A stretch of 64,000 nucleotides of DNA from Cyanidioschyzon merolae (GCA_000091205.1 AP006502.2), one strand, 5' to 3'. Numbered from the stretch's first letter, positions 3,139-54,165 are shown. Notes: generated by a model not told the origin, from the letters alone. Program-made: numbers and translations.

Positions 3139-3524
3139 GGTGTCCGTTGTGAACGTTTTAGGGAAAACGGCTTTTCGACAATATGCCGCGTGCGATGCAG
3201 CAGTGCGCGCGCCGCGCTGTTTGGCGTTCGGCGCGATGCCTCCGCGCCCAGCACATTACGGACGTTTTGGTACGCTCATGCACAAGTGCAGCGCGATCAG
3301 GTACACTGCCTTGTCGCACGCTTCCGTGCTACTTTACATGGAGAGATCCGAGCTTCCTGCAGTCAAATAGATTCCCGACGAACGTACGTTTTCACTAACC
3401 AATCTCAGAGATCCATGCATCCTATCCATACCGCATGTGTAGCTTGCCCGTACGCGAAACGCTTCACAGATGGCACTCGCAGCATATCCTCGTGGATCGG
3501 GTTTGCTCGCACTCACATGATGCG

Positions 3525-13203: not shown

Positions 13204-16200
13204 ATAAGTAGAGGGAGCTAGGCACGTCAGCGATCTCGCTCAACGCGTGTGCTCAGTTGTTTACCGAGCCGCATGCACAGGTCGGTTGTTCGCTCGAAGC
13301 GCGGGTACCTGGCGGCGGCGACGCGGTGTGTATACCCGGTTGCGTCGGAGGCATCACCGCGGCCGTTGGCGCACTGCGCCGCTCTGCAGCTTGCCGGGTG
13401 AGTGCGGTGGCGCGCCGGCGCTCGGCACAGAAAGCGGAAGAAACAGGATCTCATCGCCGGCGATAGCGAAACGCGTATGCAGGCGACTTTCGCCCATGAT
13501 ACATGATATGCTGTGACCTGGAGGTTTGGATGCAGCACAGTGCATGAATGCAAGAAGCATCGCAAGCTGCGTATCTACTGTTGGAAACGGAGCAAGAGAC
13601 TGCCATGCTCTGCACAAGACTCGATATTCCATGAACGCTTGATGAATGCGTCTGTTTGGGATTGAAGCTTGAACAAGAGAGCCATGCAGGGGATGTTGTG
13701 CCCTGCCATAGGCGCTACCTGCTACACACTGGCTGTTCTGCGGTGCTCGTCGTTCCGAAATAGTACGGTTATTCGTTGTTTTGTGGGCTTGAGTTCGAGG
13801 CTATGATCCGGAGAGGGCCTGCCTTGGCGACGATGCCCTACATGTCGTAAGGGCGTGTTTCTGAAAGTAGTCCTTGACGTACCGTGCATTCGACAGGAAG
13901 AGGTCGTGCATTGGCCTCGTGGTTTGTCTGTACAGGCGCTCCGGAAGGCGATGATACATATCGGAAGCTCATCTGCGGGATTTCAACGGGCGACTGGAGT
14001 GCGCGACCATTGATACAACCAATGCATCGAAAGAACCACTTACAAATGGATAACACTCGCGGCAACTGACTATTGACTGCTCCCAAGACTACCCGAAGCT
14101 GTAAGGATGCCGTCCCGCTAGTGAATCACTTCAGAAGCACAGCGTTCGACCACTAGACGCCGCCAGGAAACACTGCCGAATGTCGCTGGAATGCGCCATC
14201 CACTTCATTACAAAAGCGAGTTGTCGATGTGGGATCCTACCGGAGTTTCCTATGTATTCATGAACGAGATATCCATGTTCTATGTCGAGAGTTTGCAAAC
14301 GTATATCAAAGTCTGTGCCCGTTCTGCCCTCCGGAGACTGAATACAGTTCTGCATCCAAGTCAGAATAGAATAGAGGAACAAAGTGTGCTGTCTGGACCC
14401 GGCTTTCCATGTTTTCCTCCATTTTATCAAATGTATAGCCTCGGCATTGGAAACGCGTCATTTGGGGTCTCGGCATTCATACGAATTTCTATGATTCTCG
14501 TGGGTTGTAATGGAGGAGCTTCTTGCCGTCTTCGCCACTGGAGCCTGTTTAATCACAGAAATCGAGATGATTCGCCCCGCCCTCGAACAGGGCATCGAAG
14601 AACGGCCGATATTCTTATTCAATGCACGTGCTCGCGCCCCGACTTGTTTCCTTTCGCGTCACATGTTCAAATCAGGTGCTCGCGAGTTTTTCGATGTTCT
14701 GGTTCAAGGCAATTTGTGGGTAGAGCGATTCGCGCCACAACCTAAACAAGAAATGAGTTTCCAAAAAAGCCTGTAGAATGCCGTTATACAATTTCATGCC
14801 TAGCTTTCACTGATTTTGTCATATGAAACAATCCGCCGCGTTAGAAGGACAAGTCCTTCTCTGGATATAACCATCGGAGAAACGGCCTTTGATGCCATCA
14901 TAATGTCTGTTAGCAGGTATGCTCTGAAAACCTCACCTCTCTTGTGTTCGCATTGCACAATGACTGGGACCCGTGCTCCCGTCATTGCATTCACTGCTCT
15001 GAGAGGAGAGTGCGTCAACGTTTCAGATGCAGTGTACCTATCCATTCCGAAATTTCCGAATTGTTCTCCGTTCAGGATACTCCTAGAGGTACTTGGTCCA
15101 TCACAGACGATATCGCGCCCCATAAATCCTCTAAGGAATGAAACAGTGCGCGCTTTCGTGTTCCGCGGATAGCCTGCGCGCCCCAGGGGCCCGCCCAGAA
15201 GTTATCCTTGACCGTAGCGTGCGGCACAGGGCGCGGGGACGGAAGAGTGCAACCAGAATGGACTCCTCTACTCGGCAGGGGCGTACACCGAGCGATGAAT
15301 CAGGCGTTCGGGCGCACCAGGCCAGCGCTCGAAGCAGCGCTGTGGTGCACTTATTGAATTGCTCGGGCATAGCCATATACCACCACTTCGAAGGACGTTT
15401 TGTGGCTGAACTTAAAGAAGATGATAATGGCGAAGGAAACGCAGATTGCAACATCTGCCCGTTTACGAAATTTCTGGCCAACAATCGGAAGCGATACATT
15501 CTTGATTTGAAGACTGCGATCAATATTCTTCGACAATTGACAACGGAGCTACAGCGAGAAGAGAGACCGCCGTACAGAATGCGGGAGATAAGAGAGAGGA
15601 AAGGGAAGCAGTTGCAGAAAGGACCCGCAAGGGATCGTTTTCATGACAGTGCGCAGAGACCTGATGTTTCGCGCGTGCATACGAGTCAAAGTGCATGGTC
15701 TGCGGTAATCTTCGCTGGGTACGATGTCCGCAGATTGCCGAACCTGACACGTGTCTTTCGGACAGCGCGCACCATGCTCATGGACGCACGCTGACCTTTT
15801 TGATAAACAATGTACAGTTAGGGCCGATGTCCAAGTCCGTGCCCCAGCCGCCTCTGATCCAGTCCGTGCAGGCGCGCGCTGCACATCCGTGGTGCCGGGC
15901 ACACGCGGCACCCATTCGGGCACACGTCTCATCCGCCGCCGCTTTCGACGACTGCGCGGGAAGCGCAATCCAGTCCGAGGCGTCGCGTGCCGATGCGCGC
16001 TCTCAGCGATGATCAGGGAATATCTGCGAACACGCGCCTGTGATGGCGCTTGTAGCGGGTGTTTCCATCTACGGGCAAGGGAAGGGTCGGCGACACCTGG
16101 CGTTCCGTTGATCAACTGCTGAGCACAGAACGGGGAACAAGACGTTTATTGAGGTGAGTGTGCTGCAGCGCGCGAGACAATTCCATCAGGCGTGCACCTT

Positions 16201-17696: not shown

Positions 17697-20600
17697 CCAC
17701 ACACGCATCCAGTTCTACTTCATCGGCGGCAACGTCGGCTGCGTTCGACGATCCATCGTGCGCGCTGCAGCGAGCGTCGGCATCCGAAGTAGCACCGCGA
17801 ACTGCGTTGTAGGCGTTCCAGGCTCTGCTTTGTATGCCGTCGTCTCATCGCTTAAAGGCGGGAACCGTTTACGTGCTTGACTAGTGGAAGCGCACGCGAT
17901 CGAATCTGTCACCCAAGCGCTGGGAAGCGTACGCGTGGATGCCAATGCCCGTAACGATGCGCTGATGCCTCGAGCGCCATGCCTGATGCGCTGCCAATGT
18001 CGGTGGCGGGTCAGAACCAATACGAACCGTCCAATGGACGACGCTATGCACAAAATGGAACGCCACGGCATCCGCTGCGCTCCGGCGGCGCCGTTATCGC
18101 TGCATCTATCTGCATGATCGATATGAACGAATCGAGTGCGTTCCACTCCGAGCAGCGAATTCTAGAACACGTGCACCAACACGCCTTTTTGATTTTGTTT
18201 GTTTTCCTCGCATGTACGCAATAAGAGCATCATATCTTGTGCCTAAGAGAATTGTCGCGGAAAGACTCGATGCTGTCGCTGCTATCGTACGAAAATCGGC
18301 CTTAGTTACGCAAGTCAGTGCTTCCACGTTGAGCAAGTAGATCGACGACCCGCGACTAGTCCCTGTGCTGGATGTCGCGCACCCAAAACAGAACGTTTTA
18401 AACGCTTTCTACGAGACTGCATCCAAGTCAATCCAGTTCACCCCGAAGTTCTCGTACAAGTACCACGAAAGAATCTATAGGACATGAAGTTTCTTTACGG
18501 AGCATACGAACGATAATAAGGAGACACGATGCTCAACGAGAAGCGCCCGCCATTACATGAGACCATGGCACCTTGAACAAAATTTCTATGTCTTTCTTAC
18601 TAAACAAGAACGCTGATTACAGGAGAGATGCGTCTTCAGCTCACTCGATGAAATATCGTTGAGCAAATATAGTAGATATGTACATTGATTCTCCAAGAGC
18701 CTTCATGTGCTGTTGGTAAAGAAGAGCTATGCGGGCACGCGGACAACATCATCCCTATCGGGAATTCAATCGCGTGGTCGCCTACAGACTGTTACGCGGT
18801 TAGGATTCTTCAATACCTCAATCTTCCTCGAGGAGCCTCCTGCCTTATTTCTGACCTGCTCACAGACAACGTGGTTTTCCATCACTCAAAAGCGGTAAAG
18901 CAGCTCGCGGTTGAGAAGAAGGCGGAGCTCGACCTCATGGGAGCGAGTCCTCCCTGGTTCAATCCCGTACAAGGCGATTTCTCTGCTGCGAAACGCCGTT
19001 TTTGCGCTTACGGATTCGTAGACGATTCGTTCGCATCGGTGACACGGAAGCGCAAACGGCGCTTCTGTGACAATTCATTCTCTACACTCGCCTTGATGGA
19101 CCTCATCGCGCAGCGGATGTTAGGAGTTCCCCACGCAGGGCTATCCGCAGTACACATTCCGCTGTAGGTTATGGAGCAAAGCTGCGTGCACGGCCATAAT
19201 TGCTCCTCGGCAAACAAGAAGCAGTACTGCTTGACTGGGGCATCACAGCGTTGCCTATACGCTTCCAAGAATCCCTTGGAATGTCGCCGTGCCACCTCGG
19301 CAATCGGCACATAGACAGCGCAGGTTCCAGCAAGTATTCAACGAACCTGAAATACCAGAATCTTTCGCAGGTCGGTCTCGAGCACTTCATGAGGTGCAGC
19401 ATTTGGACACGCCACCTTCATATTGCTGGCAAAGAAAAATCGGGACTGACAGAGCGATGCTCGGGGTGTTCATGGGCGCAAATAACGAGCTGATGGCGAA
19501 TGGGCTCGACGTGCTATCGAGTTCGGAAGCGGAGCCACAGCGAGAGCGAGAGAGTCGCTTTGGATCGTCCAAGCGCTTCGCGCAGCTGTGAACCCCGAAG
19601 CTACCAACGAAGTATGCAAGGCGTAATTGGAATGCCATATCTGCTTTCCTCTGATCTTGATCGACTATGTTATCGCGATGATGGCGCTACAGAGCATGGG
19701 ACACGCCCGACCCGGATCCGTGCGCCCAAGTCTCCACATGCGTCCATTTGATGTGGTCCAGATATGGCCAATCCACACATATGGTACTATTACGAGTGAT
19801 TCTGTGCTGTATATGCTCTTTAATGGCTAACCATGGTCTCCACAAGCAACTATGAAGCATTAGAAAACTCTGTGAAGAATGTTCGCGTAGCTCGTTCAAG
19901 GGATCCCTTTTGCAGCGAATTACATGGAAAGAAATTCTCATGGACGATAGCGATCGATAGAATATCGATTTGCGTTCATGCGGCAAAGATCTGGGCCTGT
20001 ATCGAGCACCGGGACGCATGCTCATTCATTCAAGGTTGACGAATATGGAGACAATGTGGCGGGCGTGAATCCCGAGTCCAAGGGCTCTCGGGCGTCGCCG
20101 TCCCTCCAAGTCAAGAGGACGGTGCCAGAGACCTGAACGGAAAGCAGATGAAGTCGCTCAAATTTTCCAGGACTCGCGATGATTGCGAGTCGGGCGCTTC
20201 AGACTCTGGGAGGCACACAAACAATACAAAGTGCCTGTCCATGGATCCATCTCGACGCTTTGAGCACCACATCGAGCGGAGAAGCACGTTTGTTTAGGCT
20301 TCATTCATGCAGTAGATCAGCGTCCAGATGTCTCACACGAACGATCTTTGGAGAAAGCAGATGAGACTGCGCTGCGCTGCGCTCGCCAATGCTCTCTGTT
20401 CCACGAAGGCAAGAATCGTGCATTCGTAACTCGGTCTGTGAATTGGAAAAGCATGCGAACGCAAAATCGCGTTGTTCCGTAATAGCATGTGGCGTTCTAT
20501 GTGCTGTGATACCCGAGAGCAGCACTCTCACTCGTTCAAGCCGAGCGTTTAACGAGTGCAGGAATCGGTTCCGCACGATTCCCATCCAAGAGTTCCAGAT

Positions 20601-21780
20601 GGCATCCACGCATACCGAACACTTGTGCATGATGAAAAAAGTTGAGAAGAGGAGCGTCTGACAGAGCCGAATGCATGAGATAGTACACGGTAAAATGAAC
20701 GAACTTCAGATGGCGAGGCGATCGAAAACGAGCGGCTTGGTGTATTGTGATTCCACCAGAGATTCTGTGCGCAAGCACTTGTTTTACACCGAATGTTTAA
20801 CGCCTCGATCAAGAGTCCGAAATATGTTTTACTCCAGTAGCGTCCAGTGGGTGTATAGCAGGCAAATTTTAGAGAGAAGCATCTAGAATTGAGAGTGTGC
20901 CAATTGTCGAGGCGATGAAGACTTGCATTAAAAAACTTCGAGGCCACGGGAGAGGCAATTGCATTCTCGTATGGAGCAAGGCAGCGGTATGGTAGGGGTC
21001 GAAATTCCAGAAAGACCGGGACGCTGCGTACACGCACCGTAAAACGCTTCCACGTCCAGTTGGTAAACGATAATCATGTTCCACCTTTACGTATTACCGA
21101 ATATAAACATTCATTGCCCTTACCCGCCGGAAAAACGCGTATCGTATGGTACCGTCGAGAGCGATGCCAAGTCGAGTTTTGTGCAACAGTCTCTGGGCAG
21201 CTTGCGTGACCTGGGCTTGATGTCTTCGATGCGATCGCTTCTGGCCGGTACGCTGTACACCGAATAGTCGAGGCGAGTCGCAGGTGTAGTACGCGGGCTG
21301 CGATTCAGGCTCGGAATCACCAGCGGCGAGAGCAGCGCGTTCTCGTGCCGCCACGCAGCTTCCGTGTCCGGCGGGATGCTGACGTCGCACGGCAAAAGCA
21401 CAGGCGACGTGGCGTCCAGTGGCATGATGCCCGAGAACCGGAAGCATTTATGCCCTCAAAGCTGGTGCAGTTGCCGGGAATCTTCTCCGGAGCAGCAGAT
21501 CATCGCCTATGCTGTAGGCGTGTTAACGAATGCTCACAAATGCCGTCCAGAATATCTCGATGGGCAAGCAATCCACATCATCCTCTGAAAGCGCGGGTCA
21601 CTGCGCAGGATCGTCTCCCAGCAGGATGTCGGCAGCGCACTGCTGTCCTCGCCTCGCTCGAAGCGAGCATTCACCCAGAACCAGGGTATGCAAGGACGTC
21701 GTGACGGACACTGGGCGTTGCGCTGAAGCCTCCGCTGCCGATTGCATCGCGCCCAGCGATGCAATCGGTACCGAACCGCT

Positions 21781-29630: not shown

Positions 29631-30186
29631 GCCACTGGTAGTGCTGGAGGTGGCCTCTTTGATAGCATGCTCACGTGCGCTGGAACGCAACCTGCGCATT
29701 TTAAAATGAAGCGGGACGCGCCTGTCGCTCCATCATCTCTTCGCGTTTTCGCAGCGTCACTGCGGGATGATATGCCCAGCCTACGCAAAAGAGCATGCCC
29801 ATTGATGCCCTGTGCCTGCTCATTTCATATGATACCGAAACAGGCACCAGCGAGTGCTTGTGAATCTCTTCGCGGAGCTTTCCCATTCAGGGTAAAGGAA
29901 AATGGTATTCAGGCCCATGTACGCCGCGACCAATTTCCTATAGTCTTTCACCCCAGTGGTGTTGTGCACCCCCAGGTGCGGTCATCAAATGCGTTTTAGC
30001 GGCTTATAGCAAATGCATTCAAAGTGCGTTCGTTTGAAGAATTAAAAAATTCGAGGGAAAGCCATGGAGATGTAAGTCGGGGATCCCGGAAGGCCGTCAT
30101 CGCCGGCAACCCGGAAAACAACAACCGAAAAATCCCCATCTCGTCGACCACTGAGCGAAAAAGAGCGAAAGGCGAGGAAAAAGTAG

Positions 30187-30603
30187 GGAGATAGTCCAGA
30201 AAAGGGGTTTGCCCCACGGAACGACGCTGAGTCTGTAGTGGCACACAGGGCACGCATTCGAGGAATCCTTGCACTGGTGAATTCAGCCAGCGGCACTGCA
30301 CGCAACGAGTTCATCAACCGAGACTTTGACGCTGCCATCGATATCAGACGATGTGCGGTGCTACAGACGAGACACGAGGACCCGTCATAATCCAGGTTTG
30401 TGCAGCAGCCTCTCAGGCTCGAAGTGTGCCTTGATAAACTGAAACCGACAGCAGGCGGCTGGTCACAAAAGACTCGGAGGCGTCTGCGCGTGCGTACATA
30501 CAATTACCCTCCATGGTCTTGGGTCATTTTTGGTATCATGGACGCTGCATTTATAATCCGGTTATCTTTGATGGCGCCCAACACGACCACGAACATGAAC
30601 TGA
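30187..30603 (+). pseudogene. TnpB/Fanzor-like nuclease C-terminal fragment (copy 2), frameshifted
   Basis: Frame 1 reads ...HRARIRGILALVNSASGTARNEFINRDFDAAIDIRRCAVLQTRHEDPS*. This aligns with copy 1 (...RRAKVRGLLALVSTTIDGKKHMEYVNRDCNAAINIRRCAVME) across the RuvC-III motif. Homology continues downstream in another frame (EVCLDKLKPTAGGWSQKTRRRLRV vs KAELYETKFEAEVRGRFKKTGRRLHV). No RuvC-I/II upstream. Confidence 0.55.
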
Positions 30604-31959: not shown

Positions 31960-33027
31960 TCTCTAAACCAGTTGCACGGTATGCACTGCCTACTCGACGA
32001 CTCGGTGAACTCTAGTCTCCGGCAACGGTTGGCGAGAAACGCTGCGCACGCTTCCGCACGACCAGGACATTGCGGATGTCGTTGAAGAGGCGCGTGCTGT
32101 AGCACTGCATACGCGGAGGCGCTTCAGTAAAGCCTGATGCGAACAGCTCTCGTCCGTTTACGAATAGTGCGGGACTTGTATGAATAGCTTCGGTAGTCCC
32201 TGAGCGGAAAACTTGCGACTTGATTGAGCAGCTGTGTTGTTCTGCGTTCGAAAGGCTCGGAACGGTTGTAAGCACCCGTCAGAGCGCGAGCTGCGACTGA
32301 CAAGCAGGTTGCCTTTGGTTTAGGTATCGACCACCGATGCAAGTGCTGGGGCTTGCACATCTCTGGCAGAGCGCCGAGGCGGTACCTCGGTAGTGTCTAA
32401 CACGTTCGCACTCCGGGGCAGTGGAAACGGCCCTCGTGCGTATCCGTCAGGGCTCTTGCTCTCGCCGCAACTAATGTAATGGAGAGCAGGTTCGAAGACC
32501 ACAAGGGTTTTTGAGTGTTGCAGGGAAGCTGTATTGTCTTCAGAGAAAAAGAAAAATGTCTACGAAGAAATAGAGGCTGGAGCACTTGTAGTTGGTCCGT
32601 CCGCCTTCTTCTGTCCATGGGAACAGAGCTCTACCCTCGTGTCAGGCTAGAATAGAGCACTGGCCTATTTGCGCTGTTCCTACTTTTCGATTTCTCCCTC
32701 AAACTTTTCTAGATGCACAGCTTTGACATTCGAAGCGCACCAGTGAGGGCATACGAATACAAACGTAACTTCAGGATTCTCTGCCGCCTGTTGTGGAGAG
32801 GCTCTACTGACCCTTTGCTGCTGGGATTCATTTTGTCACCGGATTCAAGATGGTTTGCAATGCCCTTGAACAATGGATCGTAAAACAAGCGATATCATTA
32901 TCCTATTTTATCGTGCAAGATTCCACGCTTCGCCATGACTTGCGTATAAAGCTTGCTCAAAGCACGAATTCTTCAAGTTTTCGATCTATGATTTGTTTCA
33001 TCTCATGGGCGGGGCAAATCGCCTTGT

Positions 33028-33579
33028 TTGACTGGTGAGGAAAACAACTCTACGTCGTCCCCAGATGAATATTTCATGCGCTCGTGCCGCATGTTCACTG
33101 AGCTGGTCACGTCGAATGATCGATTCCGCCGAAAAGCAAATCTTCCTCTGTACGTGACCATCGACGAAACGGCATCCGCCAGCACCATCAAGATACCACT
33201 CACAAGATACGCATCACGAGTCTCTCATCTCTTCTGTGTGCCTGAAGAATGGTTAAGGACTCGGACACCAGTCATCGAAACGATCGCTACGAACGGAGCG
33301 TACATCCACTTTCGGAACCGGAAGCGCAGATTGATCGAAATTTCTAGACATGAACTCCAGACTGGATTTTCGTTCCGGTACTTTTTTCCATATGGACGAT
33401 ATGAGGAATCACAAATTCATGATTGCATGGAACAGCGCGCACTTCCATGTGCAACTGACCGAGTAGACGACGTGGGGATCGCCCAGACAAAGCCATTGCT
33501 TGTAAGGTCTAGCGCTGGGCACCAAGACGCAGGAGGGTATCGAGGCGAGGCTTTTGCACCTGGGAACGGTATGTGCTGA
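33028..33579 (+). CDS. ORF encoded inside the inverted repeat; putative N-terminal region of the adjacent Fanzor/TnpB-like gene or a separate unknown protein
   Basis: 183-aa ORF in frame 1, the same frame as the downstream Fanzor-like segments. Ends at TGA where the paralogous copy has TGG and reads on, so this copy looks truncated. No recognisable domain. Confidence 0.4.
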   Translation: MTGEENNSTSSPDEYFMRSCRMFTELVTSNDRFRRKANLPLYVTIDETASASTIKIPLTRYASRVSHLFCVPEEWLRTRTPVIETIATNGAYIHFRNRKRRLIEISRHELQTGFSFRYFFPYGRYEESQIHDCMEQRALPCATDRVDDVGIAQTKPLLVRSSAGHQDAGGYRGEAFAPGNGMC

Positions 33580-33626
33580 GTGCCGAAGCCAGCGTCGACA
33601 CTGTACGGGGCGGTGCTCGCAGGTGG
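33047..33626. repeat. left arm (near-identical core) of a large inverted repeat; partner at 37636-38216
   Basis: Direct comparison of the sequence with the reverse complement of 37636-38216. The encoded peptides differ at 3 of about 175 residues. Homology continues at lower identity (roughly 65-75%) outward to about 32.9 kb and inward to about 33.80 kb. Confidence 0.85.
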
Positions 33627-33753
33627 ACATTTGGTGGGCGTTTGGGATCACCTGAACATAGTCAGGTATCCCGGCTGCGAAAAGCGCACCTGAGCTGCAT
33701 GCAAGGAAGAGGAGCACGGTAATTGAATACTAGATCGTATCTTCCGACTGTTC

Positions 33754-34017
33754 ATGAAAGACATCGACAACAGCGCGAAACTGTACAATCGGTTTCTTTA
33801 CGCTGCCATTAGCATCCTTCGATTCCTGAAGACGGCGCTCGAGAAAAACAAGAGACCGGCGTATTTGCAGCCAGAGATAACAAGAGGAAAAAGAAACTGT
33901 CACAAAACAATCCCACACAAGCTGGCGTCGGTGACAGTGGGAAAAACCAAAAGTTTCGCGTGTACCACCGAATTAGACAGACGACGTCCGTTCCACTCTA
34001 GTCTGACACGGGTCTAG
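33754..34017 (+). CDS. Fanzor/TnpB-like nuclease, N-terminal segment (copy 1), ends at an in-frame TAG (34015-34017)
   Basis: Frame-1 ORF MKDIDNSAKLYNRFLYAAISILRFLKTALEK... Homologous to the inverted remnant MQCVDSCRQQPTRDSNAAIRILRLVPMQ at 37374-37556 (-). Separated from the next segment by a single stop codon. Confidence 0.45.
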   Translation: MKDIDNSAKLYNRFLYAAISILRFLKTALEKNKRPAYLQPEITRGKRNCHKTIPHKLASVTVGKTKSFACTTELDRRRPFHSSLTRV

Positions 34018-34029
34018 TTCGTTGACGCG

Positions 34030-34281
34030 GTGAAGCATGAAGATGAGAAGGAGGCGGATCCTTCGACACAGAAAGTGCATGAGAACGACTTTGTCGTCAG
34101 TGCGGACCCTGGAAAAACGAAAATCGTAACCATCGCAGCATCCAGGCGTGCAGAAGATGGCACTGACGGTAACTTACGTCAGAAAGACATGCGTCTTTTG
34201 ATGTTCTCGAGAGCGAGATACTTCCGAAAATCCGGTATAATGAATGCAAGGAAGAAAATTGTACGTGGAATGCAGGAATGA
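34030..34281 (+). CDS. Fanzor/TnpB-like nuclease, RuvC-I segment (copy 1)
   Basis: Frame 1. FVVSADPGKTKIVTIAA matches the RuvC-I GxDxGxxxxxT motif (catalytic Asp codon at 34105-34107). The frame is lost between 34173 and 34280, where frame 3 takes over. Confidence 0.55.
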   Translation: MKHEDEKEADPSTQKVHENDFVVSADPGKTKIVTIAASRRAEDGTDGNLRQKDMRLLMFSRARYFRKSGIMNARKKIVRGMQE

Positions 34282-35018
34282 AGGACCACCTTGAAGCTTT
34301 GAGCGAGGTGACGAGCCGAGGAGCGGACTTTGAAGCGTTTCGGAAATTCATGGAAGTTCGCGTTGCGCACTGGGATGCGCTGTGGGAGGATTATACCAAG
34401 CCCCGGTGGGCTCGTCTGCGTATGAATCTGTACTGCGGAAAGCAGCGTGCATTTGCGAACTTTTTCAATGAGTTGAGTGCCTTGAAGGAGGATGAAATTC
34501 AGAGGCTCGTAGCAGCGTACGGAGCAGGGCGCTGGAAGAACCGAAAAGGGACTACGCCAGCTCCAACGACCAGAACATACAAAGAGTGCGCACGGCGTTT
34601 CGTTACGATAGCTTTAGATGAGTCCCGAACGTCCTATACACACCATGAACTCGGGTGTGCGCTTCAGAGAGTGGACATGGAAAAGCGCCAGCGGAACCCT
34701 GAGGATATGAAAAAGTACGGACTGCTGACGGAGGAGCAAATGGAAAGGCGAGCGAAAGTTCGTGGACTACTCGCATTAGTAAGTACAACTATTGACGGCA
34801 AGAAACATATGGAGTATGTGAATCGTGACTGTAATGCCGCTATCAATATAAGGAGATGTGCGGTGATGGAGGAAAGACCTCCGGCGTTGACACGAGAGAA
34901 TTTTATGGGGCAACCTCTGAAAGCCGAACTATATGAGACAAAATTTGAAGCAGAAGTTCGTGGCCGGTTCAAAAAGACGGGTAGGCGTCTGCACGTCAGT
35001 CGGAGACGTCTAGTCTAG
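34278..35018 (+). CDS. Fanzor/TnpB-like nuclease, RuvC-II / degenerate zinc finger / RuvC-III segment (copy 1)
   Basis: 246-aa ORF. VTIALDESRTSYTHHELGC is the RuvC-II Glu (34619-34621) followed by a degenerate TSxxCxxC finger. EYVNRDCNAAINIRRCAVM is the hallmark RuvC-III motif (Asp at 34827-34829). Basic tail RFKKTGRRLHVSRRRLV. Confidence 0.7.
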   Translation: MKDHLEALSEVTSRGADFEAFRKFMEVRVAHWDALWEDYTKPRWARLRMNLYCGKQRAFANFFNELSALKEDEIQRLVAAYGAGRWKNRKGTTPAPTTRTYKECARRFVTIALDESRTSYTHHELGCALQRVDMEKRQRNPEDMKKYGLLTEEQMERRAKVRGLLALVSTTIDGKKHMEYVNRDCNAAINIRRCAVMEERPPALTRENFMGQPLKAELYETKFEAEVRGRFKKTGRRLHVSRRRLV

Positions 35019-35068
35019 GGCGCGTCGCTCGCCACTACTGTACACGGTCGGCATCGTTCGACTCTAGA

Positions 35069-36097
35069 ATGGCGTTCAGCGGAAGTTCGCCTGAGCGAGA
35101 GCGCTCTGGGAGTTGGATACCGAATGGATCCGAGTCCTTTTTCGGGAGTGAAGGATCAGAGGCACCTGAGGGCGCTGAAGGTCTGGGCACCGTATACACA
35201 CCGGTGCTCAATGCGGCCCAACGAGCGAAACTAGAAGCGCTTTCGGAGCTGGTGCGCTCTGCCGCCGAACTAAATCTCACGCCGACCGAAAAGGCCTGGA
35301 TGGATGAGGCGTGCCTATCCCGGTTTCTACGGGCGCGACGATATCACGTTCAAAAAGCGTTCCGGCAGCTGCACGAAACGATTGTGTGGCGGCGCAGTTT
35401 CGGGGTAGAGCAGTTGATGCTCGATCCCGAGCTCGCGGACGTCAAGCGCCAGTCTGAGACCGGCAAGTTGTATGTGCACGGTAAAGACCGGTTTGGTCGA
35501 CCAGCAGTCTTCATGAAACCGCGACTGCAGAACACCAGTGAGCGGAAAACGGCTCACGAACAAATGAGGCAGCTTGTGTACACGCTCGAACGAGCTGTTG
35601 CGGAGATGATGCCGCCAGTCGAGAAAATCTGCCTCGTGATTGACTTTCCCGGTTATTCGTTGCGAAATGCACCGTCTATTAAAGTACAGCGACAGACGTT
35701 GAAGATTCTCCAAGACTACTATCCGGAGCGCTTAGGATTCGCTGTTTGCATTGATGCACCGGCAATTTTCTGGACATTTTTTGAGATTGTCAAACCATTC
35801 ATCGATCGGCGAACATCCGCAAAAATACAGTTTTGCAGTCGAAAGGCGAAAGAAGGCACCAAACAAAATATGCGGACGCTGATGAATCAATTATTTGACC
35901 CAGAGGCGCTGGAAATCGAACTCGGCGGGCGAAGCGCTTGGCGATACTCCAATGAGGAATACTTTCGCGAACGAGTGCTTCCTGAGTATTTGAGAATTAA
36001 ATCCTATCCAGAGCGCGTGGAAATGATTCCTTGTGCTGAGGAGGACGTTAATAATACACAGGACGTTTTCTACGACAGCATGAGCTGCCTCGATTGA
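35069..36097 (+). CDS. Sec14-like phosphatidylinositol/phosphatidylcholine transfer protein (CRAL-TRIO domain)
   Basis: 342-aa ORF. CRAL-TRIO N-terminal helices (ACLSRFLRARRYHVQKAFRQLHETIVWRRSFG) and lipid-binding domain (GKDRFGRPAVFMKPR...ICLVIDFPGYSLRNAP...ERLGFAVCIDAPAIFWTFFEIVKPFIDRRTSAKIQF). Confidence 0.8.
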   Translation: MAFSGSSPERERSGSWIPNGSESFFGSEGSEAPEGAEGLGTVYTPVLNAAQRAKLEALSELVRSAAELNLTPTEKAWMDEACLSRFLRARRYHVQKAFRQLHETIVWRRSFGVEQLMLDPELADVKRQSETGKLYVHGKDRFGRPAVFMKPRLQNTSERKTAHEQMRQLVYTLERAVAEMMPPVEKICLVIDFPGYSLRNAPSIKVQRQTLKILQDYYPERLGFAVCIDAPAIFWTFFEIVKPFIDRRTSAKIQFCSRKAKEGTKQNMRTLMNQLFDPEALEIELGGRSAWRYSNEEYFRERVLPEYLRIKSYPERVEMIPCAEEDVNNTQDVFYDSMSCLD

Positions 36098-37373
36098 GTC
36101 CAGCACCACAGGGCCCCGTTGATTTTGCTGTTTACTTGTTCAGTGGGCAAACGAAGCGCTGATAGAATCAGAGTCCTTCGATATCATGATCTGCGTAGCG
36201 TACATCGGTCGTTGGAATTCGTGCGTAGGGAGGATCAGCGACGCTCGAGATACCACGCTCGATGGATATGGAGTTCGATCAGATTTCCGATACGGTATGC
36301 TCTTGACGGATGATGATCAGCGCTTCGAGCTATGAAGGAAATATCGCTTATCAATGATGCGCAGTGTTCGGTTTTAGGCGCAAGGTGCCTGATCATGGAG
36401 CGTGCAGTGGATTCTACTGCACGCAGAGCGATTCGGAATGGTTTTTGAGATGCCAGCACGGTCGCAGCAGGCACTCCTAGAGAATGGTGATACCGAATGC
36501 CGATATGGCGCAATGTGACGACACGAATGTATTCGTTTCGGATGATCTCGGTGTGCACGTCAGAAGCGATCTCGCAGGATGCAACTCGCTTCGTGCGGAT
36601 GTATTGCGCAAGCCGCGGCGCGTTTCAGGAACGACTTGCGTGGGCCCATTCGCAAAGTTTACGAAATCATGCATTGTGCCCAATGCTCGAGTTCCAGCTT
36701 CTAGGTGCTGCAGTCGAACGCCACTCCTGTATCCAGAGAATCATGTTCGGAGGCATATCGAGCTGGCTGTACAGCGGTCTCTTCAAGACGAGTTTTATTA
36801 AAGCCACTGAGTGCATTCGCAAGCCGCTTCGTTTATTTGCGAGCCGCCCAGGTCAACCTTTTTTCAACTCATGGCCTCAGCGAAGTTCATCGAAAAGACA
36901 AACGGGCGCGGGGACACCCCGCAGCACCTACATGGGTACCGGCTTGGAAGCTTCTTGTCAAATAAATTGCGGTACTCGTCATTCGACATCCAGCAACGTC
37001 ATAGATAACGTTCCTGTTGGAAGCTGCGCTCTCGATGGAGTCCGCATCCCCTTTTCAGGTTCCGGAAATTCATGTAAAATAATTTTCCGCGAATAACGCT
37101 CTGCGGACCACGCCTTATCCGATAGCACGTCGAGGCAGGAATCGCGTCGTGTTGAAAACGCAATATGCTCATCCGAATACAAAGCTGAATATAACCTTAT
37201 ACAGTGTGACATAGCTGCTTCCACTCGAATATTGCTACACCTGTGTCAGCATAAATTGGAACGTATTCACTTGGGCAACTCGGGCCTGCTCACTAGAGTC
37301 TAGGTGTCTTCCAATTGTTATCAACACTAGGCTTTGCGGGCTCGTTATCCAACTACCTTCTTTTCCTCACTCT

Positions 37374-37556
37374 CTAACCTCTCAACTTATAACACATCGG
37401 CCTCTCCGTGTCATGCCGCTGCATTGGCACCAGTCGCAGGATCCTGATAGCGGCATTCGAGTCCCGAGTTGGCTGCTGACGGCAGCTGTCGACGCATTGC
37501 ATGCACCGACGGAAGTTGCGACCGATGCCCCGCGTCCCATGTTCATCTATTCGCAT
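37374..37556 (-). pseudogene. remnant homologous to the N-terminal segment of the Fanzor-like gene (inverted copy); body downstream is lost
   Basis: MQCVDSCRQQPTRDSNAAIRILRLVPMQ aligns with MKDIDNSAKLYNRFLYAAISILRFLKTA of copy 1. Nucleotide homology with 33700-33800 is visible (cttccgactgttcatg vs cttccgtcggtgcatg). It is followed by AT-rich non-coding sequence. Confidence 0.4.
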
Positions 37557-38256
37557 GGAGCCGCAATGCGCTGTTCGCAGTGCAGACGCACCTGACTACG
37601 GTCAGCTGTTCCCATTTGTGCACGAGCACACCTGCTCCACCTGCGAGCACCGCCCCGTACAGTGTCGACGCTGGCTTCGGCACCCAGCACATACCGTTCC
37701 CAGGTGCAAAAGCCTCGCCTCGATACCCTCCTGCGTCTTGGTGCCCAGCGCTATACCTTACAAGCAATGGCTTTGTCTGGGCGATCCCCACGGCGTCTAC
37801 TCGGTCTGTTGCACATGCAAGTGCGCGCTGTTCCATGCAATCATGAATTTGTGATTCCTCATATCGTCCATATGGAAAAAAGTACCGGAACGAAAATCCA
37901 GTCTGGAGTTCATGTCTAGAAATTTCGATCAGTCTGCGCTTCCGGTTCCGAAAGTGGATGTACGCTCCGTTCGTAGCGATCGTTTCGATGACTGGTGTCC
38001 GAGTCCTTAACCATTCTTCAGGCACACAGAAGAGATGAGAGACTCGTGATGCATATCTTGTGAGTGGTATCTTGATGGTGCTGGCGGATGCCGTTTCGTC
38101 GATGGTCACGTACAGCGGAAGATTTGCTTTTCGGCGGAATCGATCATTCGACGTGACCAGCTCAGTGAACATGCGGCACGAGCGCATGAAATATTCATCT
38201 GGGGACGACGTAGAGTCTTGCTCGTCGTCAATGCAGTAGAGCGATTTGCCGTACAA
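37543..38256 (-). CDS. paralogue of the repeat-encoded ORF 33028-33579, longer (237 aa) because TGG replaces the TGA of the other copy
   Basis: About 98% identical over 175 aa to ORF 33028-33579. Reads through 47 more residues, then is frameshifted relative to the downstream homologous segment. Confidence 0.4.
   Translation of the reverse strand: MYGKSLYCIDDEQDSTSSPDEYFMRSCRMFTELVTSNDRFRRKANLPLYVTIDETASASTIKIPLTRYASRVSHLFCVPEEWLRTRTPVIETIATNGAYIHFRNRKRRLIEISRHELQTGFSFRYFFPYGRYEESQIHDCMEQRALACATDRVDAVGIAQTKPLLVRYSAGHQDAGGYRGEAFAPGNGMCWVPKPASTLYGAVLAGGAGVLVHKWEQLTVVRCVCTANSALRLHANR
37636..38216. repeat. right arm (near-identical core) of the large inverted repeat; partner at 33047-33626
   Basis: Reverse complement matches 33047-33626 with very few mismatches. 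Flanks diverge on both sides. Confidence 0.85.
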
Positions 38257-41200
38257 CGAGTTGCCTTGAAACTGAAAAATCGAAAACGTGACATGTACGT
38301 GATTCGAGCAAGCTGCACAACTCTAAAGAAAAAGCGTACAGGCTTGTACGTATGACTCGGATGATCAGATCGGTTATAGCACGATTCTTTGTTTACGCGT
38401 TACGTGAATCATCTTGATTCCTGTCATGTAATGAATGCTGGTGTAGCATAGATAGAGCGAGCACTAGTGACGAAATGCATATTAGGTATGCATCTTTCAA
38501 TATGCCATATGCATGACAAAATACTGCACATAAGATTATCCGATCCAATGAGCGCTAGATGTGGCGTATACCTGTGCTCGATCCCGAACTGGAGCGCGAC
38601 GCATTCGCGCTGCACCGCCGGCGATAGCGTACAGCAAGTTCGGGTGTCCAACGCACACGTACTGCATACCATACGCTTGCCACATTCGTGAGCGCGCGTT
38701 GATGCTCCAGTGCCATCGCGGCATCATCTCGAATACGCAACCATCGTGCGTACGCATTCGCAACGCTCCCAGCGGGCGCCGGTCATCGCCTTTGGAACCG
38801 CTTCTTGAGCTGGGCTTGATGGCGTCTTTCAATTTATTGATGGAGTAACATCCCACGATTGACACCATAATCGTTCACCAAATGCTCAAGAAAACCGCTC
38901 CTGGGGTAAATATACGGCGGTCACGCCTTGCTGGATTTCCGACCATATCACACGAATACCGTGCTGCAGGCGGAAACCCAATGCCCTTTCTACTGGCCAC
39001 TGAGTTCGGTCGTCGCAGGTCTCCGTCGTTTTGGGACAATGACCAGATCGAATACTAAGCGTTTCCTTCGAAAATTCTCCGGAGTCAAAGCATCTTGACG
39101 TTCTAGATGCATGAGTCATTTCCGTATATCGGTGGAGGTAATGAGATTTCTTTGCAGAGGATACTTATGTGGGCAAGGTTACAGCGGGAATCACTCTAGA
39201 GTAGCGTCTGTCGTCTCCCATTGCCTCGTAAGCTGGCATTCGCTCGGCCTGCCGCATACGACCTCGTGCATCTGGATCTGTTTCACGCGCTTTGTCTCTA
39301 AGTTTCACAGCGGACATTCACGCCTTTGATGCATGTATGACGTCCTGTAAGTTTCGATGGGAATCGTATAGAATTGACCCCTAGATTCGCAGGATGTTCT
39401 CGTCGTCAAAGGAGCAAAAGTCCAGCACCATGGTCTACCACAAACCACCGCGGCGTGTCGATCGTATCCTTGTCTAGCCCACGGAGCAACTTGGCGAATA
39501 CACGATTCCTACCTCCGTACAACCGAGACGGTTGGCGACACCAGCGCAGTCGCCTGAACTCATGCTAAGGATCGTTCGCAGCAGCGACTTGGGTGCTCGA
39601 CGACACTTGACTGAAGCGTACGGAGCATTCGCTTCTGCTCGATTCGGCGGTCAGCGCGTCCAGATGGGTCATTGCGTCGTCGTTCCACTCGTTGGTATGT
39701 CTCCCGGTGTCCATGATTTTCGATATCCCATGCAACCGAGCAATGGAAAAACCAGGCAGTTGTTCAACGTTTTTCCCGAGCATCAGTTGGCACACGAAAA
39801 ATCTGACTGAAACATTCGAGAGGAATGTAGACAGATGGCAGCTCCGCCTCTGGAATTCCTATGCTATGCATCAATCCTGCCCTAAGAACCGGTTCGCTAC
39901 CGCTTGCGCACGCGCAGCAGAGCAATACAGCAGCCCAAAGCTGTTGAAGGCAGAGAGGAACTTGCCTTTGGAACTTTGAGCTTAAAAGAATAGTTCGACA
40001 ACAGAGAAGACGCCCACGATGGATTTGATCCAGAGAGGATGCCTCGGTACGTAGGATGACTTGATACCAAGCTCAACTGTGCACTACATGACCGCTGTAC
40101 GGTCATGGACAGCGATGTTGCGTACGATCAGGACATAAATATGTGGCAAAGAGAAGCCACGGAGTGCATCAGCAAAGCATTTGGTGTCGAATGATCTCGC
40201 CCGTTTGGCGACTTGTGGTCCACTGAAACTTGAATCGCACGCTAGAGCTGATGCTGTCGGAATGCTCGGTTTTCTATTCCTTGTGAACAGTTGTTTGCCG
40301 TCCTTGGAACACTTATAGATAGGTCTGCCATATTCCCATGGCGCATGCTCGTCGCCCGAGACAAAAGGTAGGCTCTCCTGGAACACGCGTTCGCGTTCCC
40401 GCTCGAGATCGATTGTGTGCCGGGCATCGGACAGCGCTCCACCACAGAGACATGCGCTTTTGGTTGCCCATACGTGTGTCTTAATCACCGGTGCTCCCAA
40501 TGGTATAGATACTTCACAACTCCGAGCTTCCTGGATAGTATTTCGAACAGAACATTTGGAGTGGAGTGTCTTGAGAAGGAAACAGTGATGTGGATAGATT
40601 CTGATGCATTCTGGTTTCGCAGCACGATTGTCAAGATCGCGACTTCAAGAAGGGTGCATCATTTACCAGCTGACCAAAGATTAACCGGTTTCCGCGAGTA
40701 AGGCCAGTTTTCGGAACCCAGCGATAGCAGTACAAAGTCTTTCGGCTACCTAAACCCTATGTGCAGAACCAAACTTGTTCTGCTGAATACCTGCGAGGGA
40801 AACGAACAAAAACGAAAAACAAGTGTGCTGGCACACGAATTCCAGAATGCACTTATCTGCGTATAACGTTGCTTACATGTAGCATACATCACCGTAGTAC
40901 AAAAAATACGGTCGACGACTTGTCCGGTTTCCCGCATGCTCGAGACACTGACGCCTGCAACGGAAGGATTCGTTTAACCGAAATGTCCATCCGCGGCACA
41001 CGCAGAAGCGGCATGACACCAGGCCCGTTCCGGAGAGATTTGATGCATCCGAATTCCCAATCGAGGGACATTGCGATGCCGTGCGACTCACCCAAGACCA
41101 CGAGGCCTTGCGCCTTACACGACGGTGACCTGCTTTCCTGAAAGATCTCTCAATTTATGGGCGCATCATCGCAGTCTCTTCTCGTGGATCGAGAAATTCG

Positions 41201-43205
41201 TCGCATGCCAGAAGCGAGAGTCACGCGCGCAGCAGTTCCTACGCATCCCGCGCGCCGCGCGCACCCAGTAATGTCTACGACATGCGCCCTGCCCATGTTC
41301 CAGGCGAGCGCGAGCAGCCCAAAAATACACTTCCATGACCCGAACGGAACCTCCTCGTGCTAAACGACCGTAAATCTCCGCGCAAAACGCTCCTCCTACA
41401 TGACAGAGCGACATCCAACGTGCCCTCTGCCAGAAAAAAAAAGTCCAATTCAGCGCATGCGCTAGCATCGCCCGCGCCGTGTCTCTTCTTCTCAGCACGT
41501 GTCTGTGTCGTGCGCACCTCTGCATCAGTCAGAGCGCAACGACGCCTTTCGGTATCGATGAAAAGTCTGTAAGAGGCATTGCCGAAGGCAGCAGCGCATC
41601 CGCACCTCCCGAAATCGAGACAAAGCCGTCGCATCCAGGGCATACTGCTCCAACGCACAGCACATCAAGTCTCGCTATCGCTTCCTCATGTAATAGAGGC
41701 GCTTTAAATGATACATGACCGTACTCTTCGGCTTCTTGTTGACTGTCGCGCTCGCTCTGGCCTTTGCTTGTGCAACGCACTCCTCGAGCGCTGCTTTATC
41801 CTTCGCACAAGCAGCCTCATTGAACTCGTTTGCCCCCAGACACTGTAAAAAGCTAATTAACTCGGAGGTGCACACCGGGCCGTGCCTTACGAGGCGCTCG
41901 ATCTGGGAGCGCTTCGGTAGCGCCAGCTCCCTGGTGTTGCTCTTGACCATGCTTCACTCTGTGCAAACCCAACGCACCAAGAACAAGAGAAAGCAACCCG
42001 ACGGAAGTGTAGCAGCCAAGTGGAGCTTGCTCCAGTTAGCCGCGAGCGTGCGTGGGCAACGCTGAGCTCTAGCGGCTGCCGCCTCGACAACCTGGACCTC
42101 AAACCCTGCGAAAGAAAGGTTTATGAATGCACCCCGCCCCGCCGCCGGTGGCGTACCAAACCAGCACGTCGTCTGCGGCACGGGCAGGGGTGGCGCTCAG
42201 AGGCGGCCCGCGCGCCATACCCCATAACATGGGATTGGTGCTTTTCTTTTGAGAATGATTCTTCTCCCAGATTCTGTGAAGTGATGAACGGGAGATGTCA
42301 GACTCTATGTCTGAAGAGCGGTACGCCTTGTGAGAAGCATGGAAGTAGTGCGTACGCAAAGCTTTCATGAAAGGCCGCGTTCATCGAGTTCTGATCCAGG
42401 ATCTGAGCGTTCGTTCACTGCGCACTGGTTAGCTGCAGCAACACCCTGCAGTATTGGAAGACGGCTCCGCAGTCCACCAGCTGCGAAAATGTTGCGGAGT
42501 GAATGTTCCAGCATGTCCTCAAGTCCGATATCTGGTTTGCGTCCGAGCGCACGCGGCACCACCCGTGTCTAGAGCTGCGCTCTGTAGCTTGCGACGCCGG
42601 GTTGCCACTATTCAAGGCGGTAGGCGCTGTTTTCCCTTTTCCCCTCTGCATACCCGAATATCATGTACCTCGGCTGTCGCCCGTGGAATCCCTGATCCCT
42701 CAATACTCCTCTGAATAGACCAGTGAACGCCACTACGAACGCGCCTTGCTACCCGCGCTGCAGCGCACGAGCACTGGACCCATAGCGTCCACCTGTCTCT
42801 GGATACGGATAACCGCCGCACCTCTGCGCGAGAGGTCTGTACTTCGACGCATCGATTCAGCACCATAACGCGAACCGTCCAGGAGCATCGTACCCGCCGG
42901 GAGCCTGGCAGCTCCGCCACGCTGCCGCATAGGCTGCACGAGCTGCGACAGACGTTGTCGATGTGACGTCCAGGCTTACCAAAGCGCATGCACATTCATT
43001 GGCGGCACTCTTATGCCGTCTACGCTAAATGAGCGCATCACGTACCGGTCGGCTGCACGGGGCGCTGTGCAATCAGACTTTTACGTTGAGCGAATGATGT
43101 CTCCATGGTCGAGCAGCGCTGCTGCGACGCACCCTCAGTCCCAGTGGCGAAACGTGTTTTTTGGCCTCGAGGGCCTGCACGTGCCAGCCAGATAAAAATT
43201 CGTGC

Positions 43206-53037: not shown

Positions 53038-53769
53038 GCCCTGCGCCTCGACAGCGTCCACTTTCTGCCATAGCTACACCTATGTCCTAGAAATACATCG
53101 ATCAAGGACGCGCGTCGTGTGGTATTCCTCAGTGCCGCAACCACGGAATCCCGCAGTGCAAGTCCCGTTATCGCTAACGAGATGAAGCGTCGCATCGTAC
53201 CGCGAAGGAGCATCTGACGCTCGATGCGCTGTATCGCGCTCGCGAATATAGCTGTCGCTCATTGCGATAGCTGTCTGTGAGACCATTACGGGCTCAAGTC
53301 GAAGCGTAAAAAGAAGCCAGTGCCCTCAATCTACATCGCTTTCAGGACCTACTATGACTCTGCTGCCTCGCCACAAACGAGCAAACGCTGCAGCGAGCGT
53401 CCATCGGTCCGTACTGCTCAGATGCACGCGCACAAACAGCGACATGGTTCGCTATCCCAGTCTATATATATGTCAGATCTGAAGGTGGTGTCCCCGATGG
53501 TTCAAGTGACGTTCAGGTTCGTGATTCTCTCCACTTATCGATCGATAAAATGCAGCGGGATCGCTGGCGCGCGTACCGGCACCCGTGTCGGAAACAGTGT
53601 CGAGAATTTTATCGATCTCCTCGCAGCATTGGATTCTTCCAACAAATTAATCTGTTTACAAATCCCATATTTGATCGTAGTTGCAACGAAATCGACAAAG
53701 TTGTTCGCACCTGTTCCACCAGCGCTAAAGCGACGCGACACAGCAACGCGGAAATCATCAGTGGAGCGA

Positions 53770-54165
53770 ACAATGCCTCGCACCCATGGGCGGCAAATAC
53801 AGACACTCACGCGCAGACGCTTCCCAGACTTTTTAGACCGGCAGTCCGGTATCGGCGGCAGCTCTTGCGTCTACAAGTTGAGCATCAGAGGCTGCACTAC
53901 AAAGTCGGATCGCGCCTGCTCCTCGGGTCTCGTCCTCAGCACCGCACATCGTATGATATTGGTGGCGGCGTTCAAGTCTCGGTTCACGAACTCCATGTCT
54001 GCATCGACGCTGGTTGAACGCACCATGGCGAGGAATCGTCGAACTCGTGCCCTCTGTGCCAATTGGTGCACTGTCAGCTCTGCATGCTTTTCTATCGCCG
54101 AAGCGCTGCGCGGCTTTCGCTGCATGTCGTCCTTCTGAAACGTACACCCCAGGTCATCGCTTAAT
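53770..54165 (-). pseudogene. TnpB/Fanzor-like nuclease C-terminal fragment (copy 3), truncated upstream and frameshifted near the tail
   Basis: Minus-strand frame reads KLSDDLGCTFQKDDMQRKPRSASAIEKHAELTVHQLAQRARVRRFLAMVRSTSVDADMEFVNRDLNAATNIIRCAVLRTRPEEQARSDFVVQPLMLNL*. The tail SKKSGKRLRVS continues in another frame. An upstream stop lies inside the AT-rich run ttaatttttaaaa at about 54170. Confidence 0.55.

Follow-up and report, generated by a model that had tools for sequence, protein, structure and literature searches.

A stretch of 64,000 nucleotides (nt) from chromosome 20 of the alga Cyanidioschyzon merolae 10D (GCA_000091205.1 AP006502.2), termed here the window, has two inverted arms that share a 581-nt core of 98.6% identity. 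The arms bracket a spacer with a fragment of the Fanzor1 element CMe-1A and an intact Sec14 gene. Each arm is a full copy of an ancient dispersed repeat of ∼1.3 kb, for which the working name R1300 is used. The core most probably arose by homology-guided copying of one R1300 copy over the other, either by ectopic gene conversion or by a template switch. What has the appearance of a functional inverted structure around a Fanzor gene would then be a conversion tract between dead relics, and no special role is needed to explain it. The finding is an ordinary evolutionary footprint in transposon debris. It is also a very clean natural case of copying between partners that are too diverged for normal recombination, and bears on how such events start.

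At the DNA sequence level, the left core arm (33047-33627, plus strand) and the reverse complement of the right core arm (37636-38216, minus strand) are identical at 573 of 581 positions when compared base by base. A repeat search of the window gives inverted arms at 33013-33627 and 37636-38250 that are 96% complementary and have 4008 nt between them. The eight core differences are at 33147, 33210, 33331, 33445, 33456, 33470, 33509 and 33579 in left-arm coordinates. Half of these alter the product: three replace an amino acid (P/A, D/A and S/Y), and one is a stop codon in the left arm (TGA, 33577-33579) where the right arm has TGG. The core is covered by open reading frames (ORFs) of 183 and 237 amino acids, the longer of which (38256-37543) is carried by the right arm via the TGG. 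In 50-nt intervals of the gapped alignment, identity is 0.94-1.00 inside the block from 33047 to ∼33627 and 0.58-0.74 directly outside. The edges at 33047 and 33627 are abrupt, with a change from 0.62-0.74 to 0.90-1.00 in one step at both ends. The first-pass annotation had placed the core at 33047-33626 and 37636-38216, with the same three amino acid differences, a right-arm read-through, arms ∼4 kb apart and a sharp identity boundary. These features are all borne out, and the alignment does not show a uniform identity across the homologous span.

Metagenome contigs that are ∼99% identical to the window were found by exact-protein look-ups and a 21-mer scan, and evidently represent other strains. 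Two of these, L016 (46 kb) and L019 (21.8 kb), have both arms and are collinear with 31.7-52.0 kb of the window at 99.1% identity. The left and right arms, together with their respective diverged flanks, were recovered from at least seven independent samples, and the core boundaries are the same in every strain contig examined. The TGG (33579/37684) that lengthens the right-arm ORF to 237 amino acids is found only in 10D; in all metagenome strains examined, TGA occupies this site in the left as well as the right arm. The 237-amino acid ORF is thus a recent, strain-specific change.

Homology between the arms continues outside of the core at a far lower identity. An outer local alignment of the arms extends to 32826 and 38436, and a permissive search aligns 33735-34017 with 37521-37235 at 58.8% identity (E 5e-12). 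The outer flanks have an alignment score of 39, compared with 19.5 ± 2.3 for 500 dinucleotide shuffles, and the inner flanks a score of 36, compared with 18.9 ± 2.1; in neither set does any of the 500 shuffles reach the observed value (z about 8). The limits of the homology are ∼32700 and 38460 outward and 34017 and 37235 inward, so that those proposed earlier (∼32.9 and 38.33 kb, ∼33.80 and 37.37 kb) are too short. Whole-flank identity is 55% in the outer and 58% in the inner flanks, and 65-73% is attained in the best local stretches only. The flank homology recognized at first pass is thus real, but its identity was overstated.

Six copies of R1300 are present and constitute ∼12% of the window. 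The left-arm copy (32700-34017, plus strand) is complete at both family termini. The right-arm copy (37235-38460, minus strand) is inverted with respect to the left one and its outer (5′) end is poorly alignable. The other four were located by tblastx and blastn and, together with the arms, placed in a six-copy alignment; they are at 4569-5877 (plus), 14441-15634 (plus), 47550-46243 (minus) and 61775-62810 (plus). In this alignment the left-right pair shows an identity of 0.55 in the outer segment, 0.99 in the core and 0.58 in the inner segment. All other pairs show 0.50-0.63 in the outer, core-equivalent and inner segments alike. Among the other four copies the core-equivalent segment is 53-60% identical, a level of conservation that does not exceed that of the flanks. 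Beyond the edges of the core, each arm is as distant from its partner as from the remaining members of R1300, which indicates that the arms are old copies that diverged independently and not products of a recent duplication. In addition, the core is in register, occupying 580 aligned columns compared with ∼575 in the other copies. The combination of flanks that resemble those of any R1300 pair with an in-register core of 98.6% identity supports the earlier proposal of a recent gene conversion between old inverted paralogues.

The anatomy, the identity profile, the membership in R1300, the lack of selection and the presence of the structure in several strains are shown directly, and the mechanism, direction and timing of the copying are what we infer from them. 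The two arms are best regarded as very old, independent insertions or relics of R1300 that happen to face opposite ways with 4 kb between them. A tract of 581 nt from one copy would have been written in register over the other before the sampled strains diverged; all sampled strains carry the block with the same edges, which sets this lower age. The copying may have followed either of two routes, repair of a break from the neighboring inverted copy (ectopic gene conversion of the synthesis-dependent strand annealing type) or a template switch between the inverted copies during replication. The identity block would be bounded by ∼57%-identical sequence that is too diverged for heteroduplex extension, and a halt at these flanks may account for edges that are sharp and constant between strains. 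The resulting 581-nt block is long enough for ordinary homologous recombination, a process reported to work well enough in C. merolae to permit gene targeting (PMC3764038). Further conversion may keep the arms similar, and an inversion of the spacer would be possible in principle.

In keeping with this explanation, a scan of the metagenome contigs with a 21-mer from the core finds this locus only and no third copy. Several points weigh against it. Recombination between sequences of ∼57% identity is expected to be extremely rare. As such an identity is far below the tolerance of normal recombination, the founding event would have to be a rare or exceptional repair or a microhomology-driven switch. 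The sole junction feature is found at the inner edge of the right arm, where there is a short direct repeat, GCAGGTGGAGCAGGTG. Identities of the core to the other four copies are 0.60, 0.53, 0.58 and 0.58, those of the left outer flank 0.60, 0.52, 0.58 and 0.60, and those of the right outer flank ∼0.51 throughout. The core pattern is closer to that of the left flank, a weak hint that the left arm may be the donor. Evidence for continuing exchange between the arms is equivocal as well. The core has 26 variable sites across strains. The number of sites at which the two arms of one strain differ is 2 for L016, 8 for 10D and 11 for L019; between 10D and L016, arms in the same position are separated by 6 and 12 differences. 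TA and AC haplotypes at 33456/33470 occur in both arm positions across strains. The shared haplotypes and the similarity of the L016 arms are suggestive of ongoing exchange, and are only suggestive because metagenome assemblies from short reads cannot phase arms that are identical over hundreds of bases.

A proposal that is compatible with conversion is that of an active flip-flop, in which crossover within the core inverts the 4-kb Sec14/CMe-1A segment and both isomers coexist in nature. The 581 nt at 98-99.7% identity are ample for homologous recombination, and could mediate an inversion of this gene-bearing segment. Contigs L002 (1.4 kb) and L017 (Ga0078972_1002174, 66.8 kb), from different samples, join the right outer flank and core to the left inner flank. 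In L017 the whole spacer is reversed, and the Sec14 gene is on the strand of the nearby gene for a CX9C-like protein. However, an inverted repeat that is longer than the reads makes both orientations equally valid paths in a de Bruijn graph. L017 and its parental twin L018 (Ga0080006_1224609, 66.7 kb, from a sister sample) both end inside the distal arm, which is expected of an assembler on its second encounter with the repeat, and the same core haplotype is present in L013, which is parental, and in the flipped L017. The opposite spacer orientation in L017 and L018 reflects either an error of the kind that short-read assembly can make with DNA between inverted repeats or a real inversion. Junction-spanning arms are parental in seven cases and recombinant in two, which is indistinguishable from a chance choice, and 10D and both fully spanning contigs are parental. 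Moreover, there is no recombinase gene nearby: no recombinase domain was found among the genes in or next to the structure (Sec14, the CMe-1A fragment, an Rce1-like protease and the CX9C protein). Assembler ambiguity explains the flipped L002 and L017 equally well as crossover does, and an active flip-flop is considered unlikely.

A broader speculation is that the 581-nt block serves as an active hotspot of recombination in wild populations of Cyanidioschyzon, with recurrent conversion and exchange and the spacer in both orientations. The founding event would perhaps have been set off by a cut, made by Fanzor with its omega-RNA or by a transposase, and repaired from the neighboring copy. This is regarded as quite improbable. 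If true, the locus would be a natural reporter of mitotic or meiotic recombination in an alga that has long been regarded as asexual.

The coding remnants of R1300 bear on whether the core has a function. Neither arm ORF has a Pfam match. A majority consensus of the six window copies matches DDE_3 with 33.8 bits (cut-off 28.6, E 3.7e-8) and, marginally, PF07282 Cas12f1-like_TNB (the former OrfB_Zn_ribbon) with 26.8 bits (cut-off 26.3, E 5.8e-6), both scores being just above threshold. The DDE frame of the consensus is LFVAIDETAF...YAPRGSR...TRTPVIAAIA...GSVDG.KFFDLL...CFIMDNIAFHKS...AYAPRGSP. The Fanzor-like frames are KKPLIVGYSTG...PVPVKGLYRAMKQ...VVAILEHLTTVRCHRCEERT...LCMQCVD...NRDLIAAINIIRLL. 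The TNB pattern is E..T[ST]..CxxC...CxxC...RD.xAAxNI, to which ...ILEHLTTVRCHRC...LCMQC...NRDLIAAINI corresponds in the consensus. One related metagenome ORF has 20.8 bits with DDE_3, and the DDE part of R1300 matches the transposase of PUl-1, a Mariner element of Pythium ultimum, by blastp (E 4e-4).

When the consensus matches are mapped onto the left copy (all on the plus strand), a putative DDE_3 transposase core remnant of the Tc1/mariner-IS630 type, with a broken frame, is at 33154-33481. A first Fanzor-like stretch follows at 33478-33627, and a TNB remnant (RuvC-II, zinc finger and RuvC-III) is at 33627-33878, in the diverged inner flank. The identical core spans the whole transposase remnant and the beginning of the Fanzor-like part. 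Of the catalytic triad, the arms keep the first D (IDET) in frame; the second (MDD..HK) is read in the +1 frame, and the third has degenerated or been lost.

R1300 is read as a decayed deletion derivative of a Fanzor-carrying transposon of the Tc1/mariner type, in which a 5′ part of the transposase would be fused to a 3′ part of Fanzor. Readings of the repeat as DDE transposase only or as Fanzor only were dropped, as the consensus has both in different frames. No convincing terminal inverted repeats were found in the six copies or the consensus, and no TA duplications were recognized. When profiles of the arm-family ORFs and of the CMe-1 family are compared, the match is collinear but weak (P 0.02-0.06), and the TnpB/Fanzor link of R1300 therefore rests on the Pfam match of the consensus. 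Searches of solved-structure sequences with the arm-family profile and both consensus peptides gave no match. An R1300-like family is not described in PMC1955436 (Nozaki 2007) or in PMC3627910 (Bao & Jurka 2013). The C. merolae genome is reputed to be transposon-poor (0.7%), and R1300 hints that it holds a further, unrecognized family of Fanzor-carrying transposons. It also hints at a possible descent from Tc1/mariner-type transposons for the Fanzor elements of C. merolae, which had not been assigned to a class in 2013. The R1300 family is perhaps of longer-lasting use than the inverted repeat itself.

Close protein relatives of the arms are few. Among 5.8 billion proteins the right-arm ORF has one, P0001 (97% identity), a 190-amino acid ORF called at the same locus in other strains. 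The next-best relative of the arm ORF among 1.84 billion representatives is at 37%. An exhaustive HMMER search adds only 25 further short ORFs of 30-48% identity, which are evidently translations of other decayed copies, and a third large protein search with the arm-family alignment as query added almost nothing.

Strong selection on the core was the other explanation offered at first pass. In a fuller form of this reading, the core would encode a functional (domesticated) protein of ∼175-237 amino acids or a functional RNA. The core is indeed covered by the 183- and 237-amino acid ORFs, and P0001 is called in other strains. Across the R1300 copies there is also a weak excess of mismatches at third codon positions (0.461 versus 0.426 and 0.429; p = 0.004), which pertains to the whole element. 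However, the identity extends to all codon positions, and protein constraint cannot hold synonymous and non-coding sites at 98.6% beside homologous sequence of 57%. The other four R1300 copies show no extra conservation of the core-equivalent segment, and half of the arm differences change the product. The arm ORFs are defective: they are displaced from the ancestral DDE frame, do not read MDD..HK in frame and lack the third motif. Neither an Rfam scan nor a Pfam search with the arm ORFs gave a match. Selection is accordingly rejected as a very remote prospect, and there is no sign of a working protein or RNA encoded by the core.

A young mobile element of ∼580 bp that was inserted twice is also hard to credit. 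A short element of this type is known in C. merolae, TE-N2_CMe, which is 635 bp and corresponds to the 5′ end of CMe-1A (PMC3627910), and the ends of the core are sharp. Yet in both of the diverged copies of the longer repeat the core stands, in register, in place of the homologous segment and does not interrupt it, and is found at no other locus by the 21-mer scan of metagenome contigs or by protein searches. It has no similarity to CMe-1A, including the 5′ 635 bp, and its edges have no target-site duplication or terminal repeats.

An assembly artefact, in which the inverted arrangement or the near-identical core would be a collapsed or chimeric repeat, is scarcely tenable: short-read metagenome assemblies do conflict in spacer orientation (L017 and L002), and an earlier 10D draft held >20 kb of misassembled sequence according to the 2007 paper (PMC1955436), but the window agrees with the finished 10D sequence, assembly does not raise the identity of two sequences from 57% to 99%, and the arms with their own diverged flanks recur in independent samples. 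The 10D genome is Sanger-finished, telomere to telomere and gap-free (PMC1955436). Two window ORFs are residue-for-residue those of 10D methylenetetrahydrofolate reductase (BAM83511.1) and malate dehydrogenase (BAM83512.1). As L016 and L019 independently span the same inverted structure collinearly and carry both arms, a chimeric assembly is very unlikely, and the concern about mis-assembly raised at first pass is largely answered.

The copying event inferred here resembles known systems in part. In arm-to-arm conversion, as in sex-chromosome palindromes and the concerted evolution of inverted repeats, an inverted block of near-identity is likewise present within older homology and has abrupt edges. 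As in the palindromes, identity is independent of coding constraint, and the arms are a potential substrate for inversion. Unlike in palindrome conversion, the tract here is only 581 nt, the partners are ∼57% identical dead transposon relics and not selected genes, and the arms are 4 kb apart and do not form a tight palindrome. Quasi-palindrome template switching, by fork stalling and template switching (FoSTeS) or microhomology-mediated break-induced replication (MMBIR), makes a perfect inverted repeat in one step; microhomology suffices, and the edges are sharp. The events described are mostly of tens of bases and closely spaced, in contrast to the 581 nt and 4-kb spacer here, and the locus has no diagnostic junction signature save for the GCAGGTG direct repeat in the right arm. 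Among cases of arm-to-arm conversion between inverted paralogues, the locus is unusual only in the divergence of the partners and the shortness of the tract.

With respect to mobile elements, PUl-1 is a Mariner element with Fanzor1 (PMC3627910), and the R1300 consensus similarly has DDE_3 followed by TNB in one orientation. R1300 differs in that it is only 1.3 kb, its coding remnants are fused and overlapping, all copies are decayed and termini are unrecognized. The locus is not a composite transposon, as the identical block occupies an interior part of each 1.3-kb copy, and no locus other than this one was found to carry the unit. Ectopic recombination between inverted transposon sequences has been reported as a cause of inversions (PMC3004938). 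The arms resemble these substrates in being inverted repeats derived from transposable elements; here, the flipped contigs are equally explained by assembler ambiguity. The locus is neither a programmed invertible element, as it has no recombinase, nor a pair of transposon termini nor a functional gene. No published description of it was found in the titles and abstracts of the literature on C. merolae repeats, gene conversion and Fanzor.

The spacer contains a separate transposon fragment. The sequence from 34026 to 35074 (plus strand) is a 5′-truncated, frameshifted copy of the Fanzor1 element CMe-1A, and represents its last 1053 bp; it is 87.7% identical over 1053 nt to the 3′ end of the CMe-1A consensus (positions 2117-3169 of 3169 bp). 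It is 84% identical to metagenome copy L014 and has >217 protein relatives at 70-80%. The two ORFs of the fragment, 34030-34281 and 34278-35018, are in different frames, with the frameshift at ∼34278. The motifs RuvC-I (ADPG), RuvC-II (DE..TS) and RuvC-III (NRD.NAAINI) are kept. The fragment has lost the 5′ two-thirds of the element and does not have the intact Fanzor1 ORF, which is 734 amino acids in the consensus. A search of solved-structure sequences with the fragment gave no match.

The fragment begins only a few bases from the 3′ end of the left R1300 copy (34017), and the arms and the Fanzor-like body of the first-pass annotation are not parts of the same gene. DNA comparison of R1300 and the arms with CMe-1A gave no match, also for the 5′ 635 bp of the element. 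In comparison with the CMe-1A consensus, the spacer fragment is alike in its RuvC motifs and 87.7% identity and unlike in being truncated and frameshifted, and the arms are not part of the element. The arm ORF was considered as an N-terminus of the spacer Fanzor and rejected, BLASTP against a 562-amino acid family member giving a best E of 0.06. The left arm as a part of Fanzor was rejected as well: in tblastn with 19 family proteins, no match to the left copy begins before 34018, and at the DNA level the full-length L014 and L015 and the CMe-1A consensus match only from ∼34019-34026 onward. Splicing through GTATGT at 33569, a 5′ splice-site look-alike that might join the broken ORFs, was also dropped. 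The downstream frame has three more stops and a frameshift, and the family consensus explains the frames as decay. Introns are present in only 0.5% of C. merolae genes (PMC1955436), which counts against the splicing reading.

CMe-1A has been described as a C. merolae Fanzor1 element with ∼150 copies that are roughly 80% identical to the consensus (PMC3627910). A 253-copy interspersed element of C. merolae has an ORF related to WSV486 of white spot syndrome virus (PMC1955436), and Bao & Jurka list Fanzor1 in that virus (PMC3627910). From this shared link, CMe-1A is very probably the 253-copy element. The element family is reported as transcribed. Strong positive GC and AT skew of ∼0.2 each is present at 34000-35000, over the CMe-1A fragment, which has a purine-rich coding strand. 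Metagenome proteins of the CMe-1 type (P0002, P0012 and P0014) have from one to at least five tandem repeats of ∼25 residues (KHEEKKEA.P.TQEVQDNDLVV) directly before RuvC-I, and the spacer copy begins inside this tandem-repeat zone (34019-34097).

The Sec14/CRAL-TRIO gene recognized at first pass is confirmed as an intact gene of 342 amino acids at 35069-36097 (plus strand), with Pfam matches to CRAL_TRIO (E 6.9e-39) and CRAL_TRIO_N (E 3.7e-9). A gene of 342 amino acids is called at this position in contigs L016-L019. Its ATG (35069) overlaps the 3′ end of the CMe-1A fragment, where consensus position 3169 is window position 35074; thus the whole upstream region of the gene is transposon-derived DNA. 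Exact-protein look-ups with the Sec14 product and with the 246-amino acid Fanzor ORF gave no record. The rest of the spacer, 36098-37234, is unassigned and was previously described as 1.2 kb of AT-rich DNA, which does not hold: it is 1.1 kb, and its guanine plus cytosine (GC) content is 0.47-0.54, compared with a window mean of ∼0.55. No Pfam match and no similarity to R1300 or CMe-1A were found in it. It has a 199-amino acid ORF at 36497-37096 (plus strand), and a gene of the same length is called in several strain contigs. Rfam and tRNA scans of the window gave no match.

Further fragments of CMe-1A or CMe-1 are present in the window at 29939-30491 (plus), 39287-39762 (minus), 53673-54157 (minus) and 20061-20787 (plus). 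The copy at 29939-30491 has an internal deletion, with consensus positions 786-963 joined to 2851-3088, and the copy at 20061-20787 has a protein identity of just 26-29%. The CX9C-like protein next to the structure (91 amino acids, 41675-41950, minus strand) has the same sequence in 54 or more contigs. Its designation by one source as an 'ArsR family regulator' looks to be a mis-annotation.

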